A DNA stretch of 24,000 nucleotides from Synechococcus sp. UW140 (lineage in GTDB: Bacteria; Cyanobacteriota; Cyanobacteriia; PCC-6307; Cyanobiaceae): positions 89,157 through 113,156 of the forward strand of contig CALRRL020000006.1 in assembly GCA_943370565.1 (NCBI GenBank), given 5' to 3'. Below are positions 2,386 through 23,512 of the stretch, piece by piece. Numbering within the stretch: the stretch's first letter is position 1; every line of letters starts with the position of its first letter. The notes under the pieces are model-generated. The model saw nothing but the letters and a program-made list of their open reading frames with translations, searched no databases and was not told the origin of the DNA. The position numbers and the translations under genes are program-made.

Positions 2386-2915
2386 GAGAGCGTGTGCAGG
2401 TAGGCCAGCAGGTCGGCCATGGCCTGGGGTTCCGGCTGGAAGCGGGGCATGGGCGGCGTCTGGCCGCTCACCACCTGCTGGATCAGTTGGCGGTCGTTCT
2501 TGCGGGCCTTGACGCCATGGAGGTTGGGCCCCACCAGACCCTGGGCACCGATGCCATGGCAGCCGGCGCAGTTGATCAGAAACAGCTGGCCGCCCCGCTC
2601 GGCCGAACCGGCCAGTTGCAGGGTGCTGCGGCTGTAGGGATCGCTGCGGGCCGCGGGCAAGGCCACCAGCAGCAGAAACAGGGCCGTGGCCACCGCCGCC
2701 ACCACCAGCATCGCCGTCACCAGGCTGCGCTGCCGGGGACCGGGCTCCAGGCTGGCGTCAGGGCCGGATGTGGCTGACCTGGCCGAAGACGCTGGCCTGC
2801 CTGAAGACCCAATGGTGACCGGAGACCCTGATGGGGCCGATGATCCTGCTGGAGCCGGCGTGCTGGACGGATCGGGGGCCGGGGATGGGGCCGGGGCGGA
2901 GGGCGGGGCGATCAA
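2382..2915 (-). CDS. cytM: Membrane-anchored mono-haem c-type cytochrome (CytM-like)
   Basis: Haem-binding CAGCH motif, downstream Met ligand candidate (QTPPMPRF) and one hydrophobic helix ([20 protein letters not shown]). It lies divergent to petG, as I recall for cytM in picocyanobacteria. The first 68 aa are a low-complexity Pro/Ser/Ala tract, so the true start may be ATG 2711. Confidence 0.7.
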
Positions 2916-2987
2916 GGTTTCTGCCGAGCTGGTAAGCGGCCGCCTGGGCCATGGGAAGATTCTGCAACTTCAAGCCGTCCCCCAGCC

Positions 2988-3101
2988 ATGATCGAACCCC
3001 TGCTCTGCGGCATCGTGCTCGGTCTGATTCCCGTGACCCTGCTCGGCCTGTTCGTGGCTGCCTGGAACCAGTACCGCCGTGGCAGCGCCCTGGGCGGCTG
3101 A
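2988..3101 (+). CDS. petG: Cytochrome b6-f complex subunit 5 (PetG), 37 aa
   Basis: Hand translation gives [37 protein letters not shown]. This closely matches the PetG consensus as I recall it ([29 protein letters not shown]+RG). It is too short for the supplied ORF track. Confidence 0.9.
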
Positions 3102-5562: not shown

Positions 5563-5621
5563 AAAAAGCCCGGACGCGCCGGGCCGGGGGGTGTGAGGAG
5601 TGTGCGAGCCGAAGCCCCCAC
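5563..5621 (-). ncRNA. yfr1: Yfr1 small regulatory RNA
   Basis: The minus strand reads GUGGGGGCUUCGGCUCGCAC (stem-loop with UUCG loop), then ACUCCUCACAC, then CCCCCGGCCCGGCGCGUCCGGGCUUUUU (terminator hairpin plus U-tail). ACUCCUCACAC is the invariant single-stranded Yfr1 motif. The length is about 59 nt. A TAGTCT -10-like box lies at 5633-5628. The position between the guaB-like gene and trxA matches the known yfr1 locus in marine picocyanobacteria. Confidence 0.8.
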
Positions 5622-5678: not shown

Positions 5679-6842
5679 TTATTTGCCCATGCCGAGCTGC
5701 TGGGCCTTTTGGTACACCTTGCCTTCGGTGAGCAACGAGGGGGCAACCACCACTTCCACCTGTTGCATTTCCTTCAAGGTGCGGGCGCCCAGGGTGCCCA
5801 TGGACGTGCGGATGCAGCCGAGCAGGTTCTGGGTGCCGTCATCGAGGCTGGCAGGGCCGCGCAGGATTTTGGCCAGGCTGCCGGTGGTGCCCACCTTGAT
5901 GCGGGTGCCGCGGGGCAGCACCGGACTGGGGGTGGCCATCCCCCAGTGGAAGCCGCGGCCGGGGGCTTCAGCGGCCCGGGCAATCGGGGATCCAATCATC
6001 ACGGCATCGGCGCCGCAGGCCAGGCATTTGCAGATGTCACCGCCGGTGACGATGCCGCCATCGGCCACGATCGGCACATAACGGCCGCTTTCCTGGAAAT
6101 AGTCGTCGCGGGCCGCGGCGCAGTCGGCCACGGAGGTGGCCTGGGGAATGCCGATCCCGAGCACACCCCGGGAGGTGCAGGCCGCTCCCGGACCGATGCC
6201 CACCATCACGCCGGCGGCTCCCGCCCGCATCAGATCGAGGGCCACCGCATAGGTGACCGTGTTGCCGATCACCACGGGCACGCCCATGTCCCGGCAGAGG
6301 GCTGCCAGATCGAGGGACTGGCGGCCCTCCGGACCCACGTGCTCGGTGGAGACCACGGTGGCCTGCACAAAGAACAGGTCGGCACCGGCTTCGGCGATCG
6401 CCTTGCCGAAGCGCAGGGCCGCCACCGGCGTGGCACTCACGGCGGCAATGCCGCCCTGGGCCTTGATTTCGGCGATGCGGCTGCGAATCAGGTCCTCACG
6501 CACTGGGGCGCTGTAGAGCTCCTGCATCAGGGGCACGAACTCCTCCTTGCCCACCGAGGCGATCCGATCGAGCACCGGATTGGGATCGTCGTAGCGGCAC
6601 TGAACCCCTTCGAGGTTCAACACCCCCAGGGCCCCCAGCCGGGAGAGTTCCACCGCCATGCCCACATCCACCACCCCATCCATGGCGCTGGCAATGATCG
6701 GGATCTCGCGGCTGATGCCCCCCAGGCTCCAGCTGCTGTCGGTGACGTCGGGATCGACGGTGCGGCCGCCGGGCACCAGGGCAATTTCATCAATGCCATA
6801 GGCACGACGAACGGTGCGGGAGCGGCCGAGCTGAATGTCCAC
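5679..6842 (-). CDS. guaB: IMP dehydrogenase family protein (short, CBS-less GuaB-like form, 387 aa)
   Basis: RRAYGIDEIALVPG, the catalytic-loop-like GIGPGAACTSR and ADGGI..GGDI.KCLACGADAVMIG are present. I place the start at GTG 6842 (VDIQLGRS...) to give the typical length. ATG 6875 is the alternative. Confidence 0.8.
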   Translation of the reverse strand: MDIQLGRSRTVRRAYGIDEIALVPGGRTVDPDVTDSSWSLGGISREIPIIASAMDGVVDVGMAVELSRLGALGVLNLEGVQCRYDDPNPVLDRIASVGKEEFVPLMQELYSAPVREDLIRSRIAEIKAQGGIAAVSATPVAALRFGKAIAEAGADLFFVQATVVSTEHVGPEGRQSLDLAALCRDMGVPVVIGNTVTYAVALDLMRAGAAGVMVGIGPGAACTSRGVLGIGIPQATSVADCAAARDDYFQESGRYVPIVADGGIVTGGDICKCLACGADAVMIGSPIARAAEAPGRGFHWGMATPSPVLPRGTRIKVGTTGSLAKILRGPASLDDGTQNLLGCIRTSMGTLGARTLKEMQQVEVVVAPSLLTEGKVYQKAQQLGMGK

Positions 6843-6926
6843 CGGAAGGCTGATGCAGTCGGGCCAAGCTATCAACCGGGCTTCAGCGCCAGGCTCCAGG
6901 GGCCTGGCCCAGCGCCGCAGGGCGCC

Positions 6927-20706: not shown

Positions 20707-20825
20707 CGGCGAGGCCTGGGCAGGGGGTCTGGCTGGGGCACTGTTGGCCGGCTGCGGCGGGAGTTCGGTAACGACCGGTACAACCGGCCCCGGCCAGGGG
20801 CGAGACGATCCCGGAGCGGATAGCT

Positions 20826-20960
20826 GTTCCTAGGGTTCCGGCCCAGACCTCCCGGGCAACCGGGTGGCCTGGGTGACTGGTCCGAGAGGGACGCACCGGG
20901 CGGGCCTGCTCCAGCGGGTCTGGCCGGTGGCACGGAGGGATAAAAGCCCGGGAGACCGCC
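20826..20960 (+). promoter_or_regulatory. Guanidine-I (ykkC) riboswitch aptamer in the 5' leader of the arginase-family gene
   Basis: All conserved ykkC blocks are present in order. They are CTAGGGTTCCGG (20830-20841), CTGGTCCGAGAG (20877-20888) and CACGGAGGGATAAAAGCCCGGGAGA (20931-20955). A helix lies between the first two blocks: CCCAG/CTGGG enclosing CCCGG-GCAA-CCGGG. CACCGG/CCGGTG pairing lies before the last block. The element ends 22 nt upstream of the ATG at 20982. Confidence 0.88.
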
Positions 20961-20981
20961 CCCCACAGCCCCCCTGCCTCC

Positions 20982-22172
20982 ATGACGGACGTCCAAGACG
21001 GCTCCAGCCCCTTCGCGCGGCGCCATCCCACCGAGGGCATGGCCGCCCTGGAGAAAGAACTGGCCCTGCCCCTCACCGGCTGGCAACAGGAAGTGGACCA
21101 GGGCATCCGCTACGGCCTGGAAGCGGCCGAAAGCATCGTCGATCGGCGCATCTCCACCTTCTCCCGTGGTGAATTGCCCCATTACGCGGGCATCAACACC
21201 TTCATGAAGGCCCCCTACATCGAGGATGTGCACCGGGTCGGCGAGTTTGATGTGGCGATCGTGGGGGTTCCCCACGACAGCGGCACCACCTATCGACCCG
21301 GCACCCGCTTCGGTCCCCAGGGCATCCGCCGCATCTCCGCCCTTTACACCCCCTACAACTACGAGATGGGCGTGGATCTGCGCGAGCAGATCAAGCTTTG
21401 CGATGTCGGCGACATCTTCACGATTCCGGCCAATAACGAAAAGTCGTTTGACCAGATCTCCAAAGGCATTGCCCACGTGTTCTCCAGTGGCGCCTTCCCG
21501 ATCATCCTCGGCGGCGACCATTCGATCGGCTTCCCCACCGTGCGCGGCGTCTGCCGCCACCTGGGCGACAAGAAGGTGGGCATCATCCATTTCGATCGCC
21601 ACGTCGATACCCAGGAGATCGACCTGGACGAGCGCATGCACACCTGCCCCTGGTTCCATGCCACCAACATGGCCAATGCCCCGGCCGAAAACCTGGTGCA
21701 ACTGGGCATCGGCGGCTGGCAGGTGCCCCGCGAGGGGGTGAAGGTCTGCCGCGAACGCGGCACCAACGTGCTCACGGTCACCGACATCTGCGACATGGGC
21801 CTGGAGGCGGCCGCCCAATACGCGATTGAGCGGGCCACCGATGGCACCGATTGCGTCTACATCTCCTTCGACATCGACTGCATCGATGCTGGCTTTGTGC
21901 CAGGCACCGGCTGGCCCGAACCGGGAGGCCTGCTGCCCCGCGAAGCCCTGAAATTGCTGGAGCTGATCGTGCGCAATGTGCCGGTCTGCGGCCTCGAGAT
22001 TGTGGAAGTGTCGCCCCCCTACGACATCAGCGATATGACCTCGCTGATGGCCACCCGGGTGATCTGCGACACCATGGCCCACCTGGTGGTCAGTGGCCAG
22101 TTGCCCCGCAAGTCAGCCCCCAGCTGGCTGTCGAAGGAATGCAACATGGCCGTCGATCGCAAGTGGAGATAG
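20982..22172 (+). CDS. gdmH: Arginase/ureohydrolase-family enzyme, most likely Ni-dependent guanidine hydrolase (GdmH)
   Basis: The ureohydrolase metal motifs GGDHSIGFP, IHFDRHVD and SFDIDCID are present. There is a ~70-aa N-terminal extension before the core. The motif GTGWPEPGG has Trp where I recall agmatinases having GTGTPE. The gene is preceded by a guanidine riboswitch and followed by HypA/HypB-like genes. Confidence 0.8.
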   Translation: MTDVQDGSSPFARRHPTEGMAALEKELALPLTGWQQEVDQGIRYGLEAAESIVDRRISTFSRGELPHYAGINTFMKAPYIEDVHRVGEFDVAIVGVPHDSGTTYRPGTRFGPQGIRRISALYTPYNYEMGVDLREQIKLCDVGDIFTIPANNEKSFDQISKGIAHVFSSGAFPIILGGDHSIGFPTVRGVCRHLGDKKVGIIHFDRHVDTQEIDLDERMHTCPWFHATNMANAPAENLVQLGIGGWQVPREGVKVCRERGTNVLTVTDICDMGLEAAAQYAIERATDGTDCVYISFDIDCIDAGFVPGTGWPEPGGLLPREALKLLELIVRNVPVCGLEIVEVSPPYDISDMTSLMATRVICDTMAHLVVSGQLPRKSAPSWLSKECNMAVDRKWR

Positions 22173-22175
22173 GCC

Positions 22176-22616
22176 ATGCATGAAGTTGACATGACCAAAT
22201 GCCTGCTCCTCTCCCTGCAGGACTGGAAGCAGCAACACCATCCCCAGGTGCCAACCGTGGCCGTGGTGCATCTGCAGGTGGGGGATTTCACCTGTGTGGA
22301 GCCCGACGCCCTGGTGTTCACCTGGGGGGCCCTGGTGAGTGGCACCTGGCTGGCCGGATCGGAACTGCGCATCGAGCGAACTCCGCTGCTGGCCCGCTGC
22401 CTCCCCTGCGGGGCCAGCTACAGCCCCCTGGCGGAGCAGGCCTACCGCTCCCCCTGCTGCGACCACCCGATGGAGGAGATCCTCAGCGGCCGCGAACTGC
22501 GGATCCGCTCGATCGAGTACAGCCTGCCGGAGCCTGCGGGCGACCAGTCCAGCCCCGGATCGGCAACTCCAGGGACCCGCAAGGCCCAGGAGCTGGTGGC
22601 TGGGGCCCGGGCCTGA
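22176..22616 (+). CDS. HypA-like nickel metallochaperone (GhaA-type accessory protein)
   Basis: It has the N-terminal MHE nickel-binding start (MHEVDMTKCLL), a HypA-like fold pattern and the Cys motifs CLPC ... CCDH. It starts 3 nt after the upstream stop. Confidence 0.8.
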   Translation: MHEVDMTKCLLLSLQDWKQQHHPQVPTVAVVHLQVGDFTCVEPDALVFTWGALVSGTWLAGSELRIERTPLLARCLPCGASYSPLAEQAYRSPCCDHPMEEILSGRELRIRSIEYSLPEPAGDQSSPGSATPGTRKAQELVAGARA

Positions 22617-22780
22617 GTCCAAGCCTGAGCGAGGGGCCATCTGCTGCAATCCCGCTCCAGCCAGGCGGCGCCACTGAGCCAAGCAATCAAGCGCATCAAG
22701 GCCACTCCCTAGCTCGCGGTTGAGGCCATTGCTGGTTTCTTGATTGCCATCCCATTTGACCCTGATTTGCCTGAACTGCC

Positions 22781-23512
22781 ATGCACATGCCCCTAGAAGA
22801 CACCCTTGGCCTCAATTTATTGGCGGCCAACCAACATCAAGCCGAACACAACCGCGAGCATTTTGATGCCTGGAGATTGCTCTGTCTCAATGTGATGAGC
22901 AGCCCGGGGGCGGGCAAAACCTCCCTGCTGGAGCGCAGCCTCGCCCAACTCTCCGAGGAGTTTGCGATGGCGGTGCTTGAAGGGGACATGACCACCCAGC
23001 TCGATGCCGAACGCCTGGAGGCGGTGGGGGTGCCGGTGGTGCCGATCACCACGGGCCGGGCCTGTCACCTCGATGCGGCGATGGTGAGCGGCGGCCTCAA
23101 GCTGCTGGGCCAGCGCCTCGATCCCGCCAGCCTGGATCTGCTGTGGGTGGAAAACGTGGGCAACCTGGTCTGCCCGGCCGAATTCGAGGTCGGCGAACAC
23201 AACAAGGTGGCCCTGCTCAGTGTCACCGAAGGCGAGGACAAGCCCCTCAAGTATCCGGTGATGTTCCGCGAAGCCGATTGCGTGCTGATCACCAAGATTG
23301 ATTTGCTTCCCTATCTGCCGGTGGATGTGGATCGCATTGAAGCCCACATCCGCCAGGTCAATCCCCGCTGCAGCGTGATCCGGGTGTCGGCCAGCAGCGG
23401 TGCCGGCCTGGACAGCTGGCATGCCTGGTTGCGGGCCAGCCATGCCGCCCAGTGCCCGCGCCCCGTTGGGGCATCCCCCCGCTCCGCCCACCCCACCCTG
23501 GTGAACGCATGA
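22781..23512 (+). CDS. HypB-like nickel-dependent GTPase (GhaB-type accessory protein)
   Basis: The P-loop [11 protein letters not shown], the [12 protein letters not shown] metal/switch motif and the guanine-specificity motif TKIDLLP are present. Confidence 0.85.

Follow-up and report, generated by a model that had tools for sequence, protein, structure and literature searches.

A guanidine-I aptamer in the short, terminator-free leader of a picocyanobacterial gdmH operon and its candidate role as a translational ON switch

The region described here comes from a freshwater picocyanobacterium of the Synechococcus/Cyanobium type and forms the 5' leader of a gdmH-ghaA-ghaB operon within a 24-kb window (the whole stretch of DNA that was analyzed). 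The preliminary description of this DNA had placed the leader in front of an arginase-family gene, which can be named more exactly. By its matches to Pfam Arginase (E = 1.6e-77) and to Synechocystis Sll1077 in the PDB (7ESR/7OI1; E = 4.8e-232 with phmmer, residues 9 to 396 aligned), the product is an orthologue of the guanidine hydrolase GdmH. The gene is followed by HypA-like and HypB-like genes in an order that is kept in 51 picocyanobacterial loci, and no terminator-like site was found between the genes of this cluster. The first ATG, at 20982, is conserved in all relatives. A second ATG at 21039, with GAGGG before it, was considered as the true start and rejected: the codon is not ATG in six relatives (L010, L016, L018, L022, L025, and L049), and the N terminus read from the first ATG matches Sll1077. 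Coordinates of all features are collected in Table 1.

Table 1. Features of the gdmH leader and the genes behind it, in coordinates of the window
Feature	Position	Strand	Basis or remark
NtcA-type box GTAACGACCGGTAC (GTA-N8-TAC)	20768..20781	+	Centred at -41.5 from the predicted transcription start
-10-like hexamer GACGAT, 22 nt past the NtcA box	20804..20809	+	Putative, from conservation
GCGG, predicted mRNA 5' end and candidate 5' strand of a P0-like helix	20816..20819	+	Conservation
Guanidine-I (ykkC subtype 1) aptamer	20819..20956	+	RF00442 score; P1/P1a covariation
Aptamer helix P1	20825-30/20888-93		
Aptamer helix P1a	20833-34/82-83 and 20838-46/69-80		
Aptamer P1b, GCAA hairpin	20851-64		
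Aptamer helix P2	20894-901/20922-29		
Aptamer helix P3	C20931-G20951 and GGG 20937-39/CCC 20947-49		
Switching segment GGCACGGAGGG (P2 end, junction, P3 5' strand), containing GGAGG 20934-38	20929..20939	+	
CCGC right behind GGGAGA, candidate 3' strand of a P0-like helix	20956..20959	+	Conservation
C-rich linker, 22 nt, 73% C, 9% G, no Shine-Dalgarno, no U-run	20960..20981	+	
Anti-P3 strand CCCCCCUGCC, -13 to -4 from AUG	20969..20978	+	Favoured OFF-state partner of 20929-39
CCUCC adjoining the start codon	20977..20981	+	Motif present, helix disfavoured
gdmH orthologue, Ni-dependent guanidine hydrolase, arginase fold, 396 aa	20982..22172	+	Pfam and PDB similarity
HypA-like Ni metallochaperone (ghaA-like)	22176..22616	+	Pfam HypA, E = 1.5e-24
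HypB-like GTPase Ni chaperone (ghaB-like)	22781..23512	+	TIGR00073 hypB, 280.9 bits (cutoff 121.2)

The ykkC assignment in the preliminary description holds: an Rfam cmscan of the whole window places RF00442 (Guanidine-I) on the aptamer region at 77.8 bits, above the gathering score of 63 (E = 1.5e-12), with the full model (1 to 107) covered. A permissive rescan of 20760 to 21020 returned no second riboswitch family, even at E values up to 10. Three conserved blocks, CUAGGGUUCCG, GGUCCGAGAG, and ACGGAGGGAUAAAAGCCCGGGAGA, each identical to the model consensus, appear in the expected order with helices P1/P1a/P1b, P2, and P3 between them. The signature blocks are located at 20830-41 (CTAGGGTTCCGG), 20877-88 (CTGGTCCGAGAG), and 20931-55 (CACGGAGGGATAAAAGCCCGGGAGA), and the GCAA-capped hairpin reads CCCGG-GCAA-CCGGG. 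These elements had been read correctly beforehand, as had GGAGG at 20934-38, CCTCC at 20977-81, and the ATG that adjoins it. The guanidine-I consensus is matched at every highly conserved position; the pocket nucleotides A46 (Reiss numbering) and A38/G67 (D. dadantii numbering) are pyrimidines in subtype 2.

Comparison across relatives leads to the same identification. Of 52 Synechococcus/Cyanobium loci with the orthologous gene, 51 have the aptamer upstream of it, and compensatory double changes were found in 10 predicted P1/P1a pairs in an alignment of these 51 leaders. Based on this recurrence and covariation together with the model score, the element is a guanidine-I aptamer and a conserved, selected RNA rather than a chance match. 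The unconstrained fold of the whole leader was uninformative, as its energy is not unusual (z = -0.14) and its 5' end mispairs with coding sequence. By analogy with the Synechocystis homologue, for which both properties were measured, the aptamer would be selective for guanidinium, and guanidine would activate the gene (PMC12704784).

Upstream of the aptamer, the spacing of conserved elements points to an NtcA-activated promoter. GTAN8TAC occurs as a single perfect copy in the 24-kb window (0.14 expected), and 47 of the 51 related leaders have GT-N10-AC at the identical offset (-48). The -10-like hexamer has A at -11 in 49 and T at -7 in 50 of the 51 relatives and always lies 6 nt ahead of GCGG, although a simple sigma-70 scan gave no match at 20804-09. 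Overall, the geometry of NtcA box, 22 nt, nAnnnT, 6 nt, and GCGG is kept in 47 to 50 of 51 relatives. The arrangement resembles a class II NtcA promoter, with a perfect box near -41.5 and a -10 element that reads only GACGAT as against TAN3T. NtcA control of gdmH is known from Synechocystis (PMC12704784), and transcription here most likely starts at about G20816.

The stretch between aptamer and start codon is very short. Linkers in the 51 leaders span 19 to 33 nt (median, 23) with a mean of 53% C and 12% G, so that AUG lies 19 to 33 nt past CCGC in every picocyanobacterial leader. A terminator stem overlapping the 3' end of P3 is typical of the guanidine-I family but not defining, and this usual platform was not found in the window. 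A plus-strand scan and a U-run check between aptamer and gdmH were both negative for an intrinsic-terminator-like site, as the preliminary description had noted in stating that no U-tailed terminator follows. Two minus-strand terminator-like matches (20974-20949) mirror the aptamer AUAAAAGCCC and the C-rich linker; no minus-strand gene ends there, and they were rejected. Rho-dependent termination at the C-rich, G-poor linker was also considered; to our knowledge, cyanobacteria have no Rho, and we dismissed it on that background.

In place of a terminator, the linkers appear to carry complements of the P3 strands. The switching segment pairs with the anti-P3 strand in both unconstrained and apo-state folds, in the register GGCA.GG.GGG (20929-39) with CCC.CC.UGCC (20969-78). 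Pair probabilities are 0.53 to 0.997 in the isolated 3' segment, and this pairing is the minimum-free-energy structure in the window and most relatives. In relatives, the linker motifs CCGUG, CCUCC, and CUGCC are complementary to this same segment, and the CCCCCUGCC motif recurs in otherwise dissimilar linker families (L005/L008/L049/L050 and L183). Of 59 linkers, 23 contain CCGUG and 30 contain CCUCC, where 0.9 and 14.7, respectively, would be expected. Across 24 linker families, complementarity to P3 strands exceeds that of shuffled controls (Fisher combined p about 1e-7), with p < 0.05 in 8 families, p < 0.25 in 18, and p > 0.5 in only 2; with RNAduplex, p is below 0.05 for 27 of the 51 leaders. 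Thus, the match noted beforehand between a G-rich 3' block and a C-rich, start-adjoining stretch stands at the level of the clade but not for the window alone, whose linker is no more complementary than shuffled C-rich linkers (p = 0.17 to 0.18; ddG, -9.3 versus -9.7 kcal/mol). Whole-leader ddG and accessibility measured against shuffled linkers were set aside as a test, the signal being weak overall (-13.1 versus -10.8 kcal/mol) and not seen in the window. A rule-based covariation count of the nucleotide 5' of GCACGG against the nucleotide after linker UGC gave G:C 13, U:A 4, U:C 11, and U:G 1.

The aptamer is flanked by two short complementary motifs. In 50 of the 51 leaders, GCGG stands at constant spacing from the -10 hexamer, with GGGG in the remaining one (L050). 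CCGC is found in all 51, and also in another 15 picocyanobacterial leaders from metagenomes, always together with upstream GCGGA. CCGC is not present in the terminator-type cyanobacterial leaders L072, L074, L078, and L080. GCGG and CCGC could pair as a closing helix, and they do so with a probability of 0.94 when the aptamer helices are enforced; as the two motifs are invariant across the genome loci and metagenome leaders but for the one GGGG, this helix is without covariation support. In the holo-constrained fold that contains it, the region from -12 to +9 is 0.57 unpaired, compared with 0.33 in the apo-constrained fold, where the anti-P3 helix forms and P0 is lost. AUG is unpaired in both modeled states, and the predicted change in accessibility is modest. 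In the nearest-neighbor model, the apo fold is more stable than the holo fold by about 11 kcal/mol. This gap exceeds what ligand binding alone can pay, and therefore unmodeled tertiary contacts or kinetics must matter.

We consider it fairly probable that the element is an NtcA-driven gdmH leader in which guanidine acts as an ON switch through anti-P3 pairing, with control exerted at translation. The promoter would report nitrogen status and give a transcript beginning at G20816, the first 141 nt of which would fold into the canonical guanidine-I aptamer. Without guanidine, the weak P3 hairpin would be displaced as its 5' strand paired with the linker; the anti-P3 helix would end 3 nt before AUG, inside the ribosome-binding window of an mRNA without a Shine-Dalgarno sequence, and initiation would be poor. 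With guanidine, the aptamer core would hold P3 in place, probably with the aid of the GCGG/CCGC helix clamping the mRNA 5' end to the aptamer 3' end, and the linker would then be single stranded, allowing gdmH to be translated. The ON logic is suggested by homology with the Synechocystis reporter, and translational ON-switching is our best inference from the modeled pairings. Counting against it, one linker family (L006 type) carries an AGAGG Shine-Dalgarno-like motif downstream of the anti-P3 strand that stays free.

The same anti-P3 hairpin might act on transcription instead, as a noncanonical terminator or pause site without a U-tract at which guanidine permits read-through into gdmH, a reading that we regard as unlikely. 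Guanidine-I riboswitches are described as usually transcriptional (PMC12186494, PMC5340920), and the authors of the Synechocystis study favor such a mechanism by analogy (PMC12704784). Filamentous cyanobacterial leaders (L072, L074, L078, and L080) carry canonical AGCCCGGGAGA...UCUCCCGGGCU-UUUU terminators that use the P3 3' strand, with the ATG 60 to 300 nt further on, and some marine Synechococcus linkers (CUCCC-UUGUUUG-AUG in the L015 type; CCUGGGCU in L161) resemble truncated terminators. However, the hairpin lacks a trailing U-run both in the window and in 48 of 51 relatives, the maximum of 5 U per 8-nt window being reached in 3 leaders; the hairpin loop would measure about 30 nt; and AUG always lies 0 to 17 nt from the helix, a restriction for which a device acting on transcription alone would have no need.

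The platform first proposed for this leader, in which GGAGG pairs with the start-adjoining CCUCC and sequesters the start codon directly when guanidine is absent, now appears quite improbable. The complementary blocks exist and adjoin AUG, and their helix can be extended to CACGGAGG/CCUCCAUG with one A.C mismatch. Comparison of orthologous leaders also found CCUCC within 4 nt of AUG in 13 of 59 linkers, compared with 4.1 +/- 1.9 expected and a maximum of 11 in 500 shuffles. Nevertheless, the helix has a pair probability of 0.002 in the window, its best enforced form reaches -14.5 kcal/mol compared with -19.5 kcal/mol for the overlapping register, and CCCCC-ATG breaks it in the closest relative (L001; 98% aa identity), which keeps the other register. 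Many relatives do contain CCUCCGUG, a perfect complement of CACGGAGG, but 5 to 6 nt upstream of AUG and not on it. A switch of mRNA stability, in which a guanidine-dependent GCGG/CCGC helix buries the 5' end from RNase E/J with translation effects secondary, is hard to credit: the predicted transcription start is the first G of the conserved GCGG in all leaders, P0 forms only in the holo-constrained fold, and guanidine-III is an earlier example of a riboswitch that controls access of RNase E (PMC12186494), but the case is purely inferential, the helix is 4 bp long and lacks covariation, and the selection of linkers for P3 complementarity is left unexplained.

The pairing of aptamer and gdmH is itself already known, having been validated experimentally in Synechocystis (PMC12704784). 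In Synechocystis sp. PCC 6803, the riboswitch of gdmH (sll1077) lies behind an NtcA promoter, binds guanidine with a Kd of about 58 uM, and raises GFP 4- to 5-fold (Itzenhauser et al. 2025, PMC12704784). The present leader shares the Rfam family, the operon of gdmH, HypA-like ghaA, and HypB-like ghaB, and, apparently, control in two layers, with a guanidine aptamer behind an NtcA-type promoter. Binding and reporter induction are measured properties of the Synechocystis leader and predicted ones of the leader described here. A terminator was also suggested for Synechocystis by analogy (PMC12704784), whereas the window has none and instead presents a 22-nt C-rich linker and GCGG/CCGC flanks.

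The leader also shares features with other known riboswitches. The core is identical to that of terminator-type guanidine-I riboswitches, such as Dickeya dadantii ykkC (PMC5340920) and the filamentous cyanobacterial leaders, and in both types the conserved 3' region (P3) would switch partners. In the terminator type, it is the P3 3' strand that enters a U-tailed terminator, whereas in the window the P3 5' strand is predicted to pair, with no U-tract and with AUG within 3 nt. The proposed logic of guanidine opening the initiation region resembles that of the guanidine-II and -III translational ON switches (PMC12186494), although these have unrelated aptamer folds and free a Shine-Dalgarno sequence, of which the window leader has none. 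In PRPP/ppGpp riboswitches (ykkC subtype 2), the 5' tail pairs with the 3' end in a P0 helix that feeds the expression platform (PMC6031431). So far, an end clamp of this kind has been reported only for the PRPP/ppGpp subtypes, and guanidine aptamers are said to lack it. The overall ykkC fold is common to both, and the GCGG...CCGC flanks could act as P0. In contrast to subtype 2, the element fits the guanidine-I model and has genes of guanidine metabolism behind it rather than purine or amino acid genes, and its candidate helix is read from conservation; it does not belong to subtype 2, the P0-like feature being the only one in common.

What is unusual is the proposed wiring of the switch to the gene through a very short C-rich leader with no terminator. 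Tentatively, and with more doubt than confidence, we suggest that the gdmH leaders of picocyanobacteria may represent a separate guanidine-I architecture that has not been described before. It would combine a P0-like clamp, made by a GCGG at the exact transcript start pairing with CCGC, with a 19- to 33-nt C-rich linker that competes for the P3 5' strand in place of the ancestral terminator, and it would turn a normally transcriptional class into a translational or 5'-end-stability switch on top of NtcA control. With the element described here, guanidine assimilation in abundant freshwater and marine picocyanobacteria would respond to two inputs, nitrogen status through NtcA and guanidine itself, which extends the Synechocystis result to a group important for aquatic nitrogen cycling. 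In the high-GC genomes of these organisms, a very short leader lacking a Shine-Dalgarno sequence appears to have taken the place of the classic terminator, and an end-to-end clamp may have been gained. If true, this would give cyanobacterial engineering a compact guanidine switch that needs no terminator, and it would illustrate how an expression platform can turn over while its aptamer stays the same.

The three conserved blocks and the GCAA-capped hairpin that the preliminary description had read from the sequence are all present, and an Rfam 15 scan of the whole window found RF00442 (Guanidine-I) on the + strand, matching its full model over 20819-20956 with 77.8 bits (gathering score 63) and E 1.5e-12. 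Because this score exceeds the gathering threshold, the covariance-model check proposed for the riboswitch does not overturn it, and a guanidine-I riboswitch before an arginase-family gene is confirmed. No further riboswitch family appeared at E up to 10 in a permissive Rfam rescan of 20760-21020. The product of the 396-aa reading frame matches the Synechocystis Sll1077 structures 7ESR and 7OI1 (E 4.8e-232, residues 9-396), Sll1077 being the Ni-dependent guanidine hydrolase GdmH (PMC12704784), and the identity of aptamer and gene is close to certain.

Coordinates of features in the window
Feature	Position	Strand	Remark
Yfr1 cyanobacterial sRNA (RF01116)	5565-5621	-	65.8 bits vs gathering score 38; the window's other Rfam match
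IMPDH-like gene	5679-6875	-	adjoins Yfr1
Xylose-isomerase-like TIM-barrel protein gene, 313 aa	19765-20706	-	Pfam AP_endonuc_2, weak match
Putative -10 hexamer GACGAT	20804-09	+	from motif geometry
Conserved block CTAGGGTTCCGG	20830-41	+	
GCAA-capped hairpin	20851-64	+	
Conserved block CTGGTCCGAGAG	20877-88	+	
Conserved block CACGGAGGGATAAAAGCCCGGGAGA	20931-55	+	
GGAGG	20934-38	+	
CCGC, invariant	20956-59	+	directly after GGGAGA
CCTCC	20977-81	+	touches ATG at 20982
gdmH orthologue, 396 aa, arginase fold	20982-22172	+	ORF 3' of aptamer
HypA-like gene	22176-22616	+	3' of gdmH orthologue
HypB-like gene	22781-23512	+	3' of HypA-like gene

The HypA-like and HypB-like genes after gdmH reproduce the ghaA/ghaB arrangement of Synechocystis (PMC12704784); the order of the three is conserved across 51 picocyanobacterial loci, and no terminator-like sites were found in the gaps between them. 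The HypA-like/HypB-like gap is 165 nt of noncoding DNA (22617-22780), comparable to that in the closest relative, L001, and contains no promoter-like match, terminator-like match, or NtcA box. The nearest genome among the matches listed is a Synechococcus sp. UW140 MAG (98% amino-acid identity), and the neighbors are the usual cyanobacterial core genes (gyrA, lycopene cyclase, leuA, and the IMPDH-like gene). The Yfr1 match bears out that this DNA comes from a picocyanobacterium. Divergent from gdmH, and sharing a 275-nt intergenic region with it, lies the TIM-barrel gene, whose product has no NCBIfam match; it is probably unconnected with guanidine control, since the adjacency is retained in only 6/52 related loci.

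Itzenhauser et al. (2025) studied the RF00442 motif of the gdmH 5' UTR in Synechocystis and reported a guanidine Kd of about 58 uM by in-line probing, abolished binding in a G16C mutant, a 4-5 fold guanidine-dependent rise of a GFP reporter, and an NtcA-dependent operon promoter with its box centered near -42; the authors left the mechanism undetermined and proposed a transcriptional ON switch by analogy (PMC12704784). The riboswitch-gdmH pairing was therefore already known and the window is a new instance of it, for which ON logic is very probable by homology. The NtcA-type sequence GTA-N8-TAC occurs once in the window, at 20768-81 (0.14 expected). When 51 upstream regions were aligned on the invariant GCGG, counting positions from it, G, T, and A stood at -48, -47, and -46 in 47-49/51, A at -36 in 47/51, C at -35 in 50/51, A at -11 in 49/51, and T at -7 in 50/51. 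The predicted layout is thus an NtcA box centered at -41.5, 22 nt, an nAnnnT -10 hexamer, 6 nt, and GCGG, with a putative transcription start at G20816. The guanidine-I riboswitch, gdmH-ghaA-ghaB, and an NtcA-type promoter together are a fresh case of a known, experimentally validated arrangement.

Searching genomes with the GdmH protein gave at least 80 loci for comparison. Among the matches listed, 51/52 Synechococcus/Cyanobium loci have the 3' aptamer block 25-40 nt 5' of the first in-frame ATG, and all 19 Prochlorococcus loci lack it; Rfam confirmed the aptamer in 12/13 picocyanobacterial and 3/4 filamentous cyanobacterial loci scanned. Plentiful compensatory changes in helices P1 and P1a (double changes at 10 pairs across 51 distinct aligned leaders), together with three conserved blocks free of variation, show selection on the aptamer as a structure. 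In the block GGUCC(G/A)AGAG (window 20879-88), 19/51 picocyanobacterial leaders carry A for G within the otherwise invariant GGUCCGAGAG; the window has G. The gdmH leader of Synechococcus sp. MIT S9452 (L037, about 2830-3000) retains the NtcA box GTATCGCCTGTTAC, GCGGA, and ...ACAAAAGCCTGGGAGACCGC, has lost CUAGGGUUCCG, GGUCCGAGAG, and ACGGAGGG, gives no Rfam match, and has the look of a guanidine-I aptamer in decay. In Prochlorococcus (L053-L071, contigs from single cells and MAGs), gdmH orthologues of 82-85% amino acid identity occur along with HypA/HypB-like genes; their upstream regions are AT-rich, no guanidine-I aptamer was found there, and Prochlorococcus seems to have lost this riboswitch layer.

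Reviews and structural papers describe guanidine-I riboswitches as usually transcriptional, the 3' end of P3 being shared with a terminator. The absence of a U-tailed terminator noted earlier was upheld: no + strand terminator-like site or U-run follows the aptamer. After CCGC, the window's linker runs 22 nt to the AUG (73% C, 9% G), with neither a Shine-Dalgarno sequence nor a U-run; across 51 leaders it spans 19-33 nt (median 23; 53% C, 12% G), with at most 5 U in any stretch of 8 nt. In contrast, filamentous cyanobacterial gdmH leaders (L072, L074, L078, L080) have a textbook terminator, AGCCCGGGAGA...UCUCCCGGGCU then a U-run, with the ATG 60-300 nt beyond it and both GCGG and CCGC missing, which argues that the picocyanobacterial platform is a lineage-specific substitute for the terminator. 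In leader L161, CCUGGGCU, the 3' strand of the classic terminator stem, sits immediately 5' of the AUG without a U tail, and marine Synechococcus linkers (L015/L022/L028/L032) read CUCCC-UUGUUUG-AUG; both look like intermediates between terminator and short linker.

The preliminary description proposed that GGAGG pairs with CCUCC beside the start codon. That exact helix fails: its pair probability is 0.002 in the isolated 3' segment, and its best enforced fold reaches -14.5 kcal/mol against an MFE of -19.5. The MFE instead pairs GGCA 20929-32/UGCC 20975-78, GG 20934-35/CC 20972-73, and GGG 20937-39/CCC 20969-71, an overlapping and mutually exclusive register (anti-P3). L001 reads CCCCC-ATG, which disrupts GGAGG/CCUCC and keeps the MFE register, and the motif CCCCCUGCC recurs in otherwise dissimilar linker families (L005/L008/L049/L050 and L183). 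The general idea, a C-rich element by the AUG competing for P3, is supported at the clade level by linker complementarity and motif counts. RNAduplex of either P3 strand with each linker, compared with shuffled linkers, gave p<0.05 in 27/51 leaders (median p 0.043). With metagenome leaders added and clustered into 24 linker families, 8 had median p<0.05, 18 p<0.25, and 2 p>0.5, one of these being the non-cyanobacterial L117, included only through a CCGC that arose by chance. Fisher's method combines the families to a p of about 1e-7, which is optimistic because they share ancestry. CCGUG occurs in 23/59 linkers (0.9 expected), CCUCC in 30/59 (14.7 expected), and CCUCC within 4 nt of the AUG in 13/59 (4.1 expected), both motifs being complements of portions of GGCACGGAGGG; a second leader group (tail GGGAGG, junction ACACGG) carries CCUCCC(G), complementary to the P3 3' strand. 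The window's own linker does not differ from composition expectation against shuffled linkers (p 0.17-0.18; ddG -9.3 vs -9.7 kcal/mol). Anti-P3 competition is, on balance, the probable OFF state.

GCGG (20816-19) is present in 50/51 leaders and CCGC in 51/51, and the two co-occur in 15 more metagenomic picocyanobacterial leaders; outside picocyanobacteria, they occur together only in L117, apparently by chance, among the metagenome leaders. Their pairing probability is 0.94 with the aptamer helices enforced; with only P1 enforced, the anti-P3 helix appears and the pairing is gone. The candidate helix resembles P0, which joins the aptamer ends and feeds the expression platform in PRPP and ppGpp ykkC subtypes and is described as missing from the guanidine aptamer (PMC6031431). 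Both strands are invariant and so uninformative for covariation, and this closing helix is a tentative candidate.

In constrained folds, the region -12..+9 is unpaired at 0.57 with guanidine bound and 0.33 without, the AUG is unpaired in both alike, and the unbound fold is more stable by about 11 kcal/mol (nearest-neighbor model). The competing helix lies 0-17 nt from the AUG in all leaders, a short, constrained distance that, with the lack of a U-tract and the contrasting terminator-type relatives, points to Shine-Dalgarno-independent translation initiation as the step that would be controlled. We give translational control roughly even odds; the rival mechanisms are a pause or termination of transcription that needs no U-tract and an effect of the GCGG/CCGC clamp on 5'-end stability. 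Lacking a terminator does not by itself make a guanidine-I leader rare: no U-run follows the aptamer in many metagenome leaders of non-cyanobacterial origin (L084, L085, L103, and others). In leaders of this type, the GGGAGA tail of the aptamer has a complement of the CUCUC/CCUUCUCGG type, and a GGAG Shine-Dalgarno lies 5-8 nt 5' of the ATG. Platform architecture is the sole part of the window's riboswitch with some novelty, and guanidine-I platforms that lack a terminator and probably act on translation look common, against the usually transcriptional picture in the literature.
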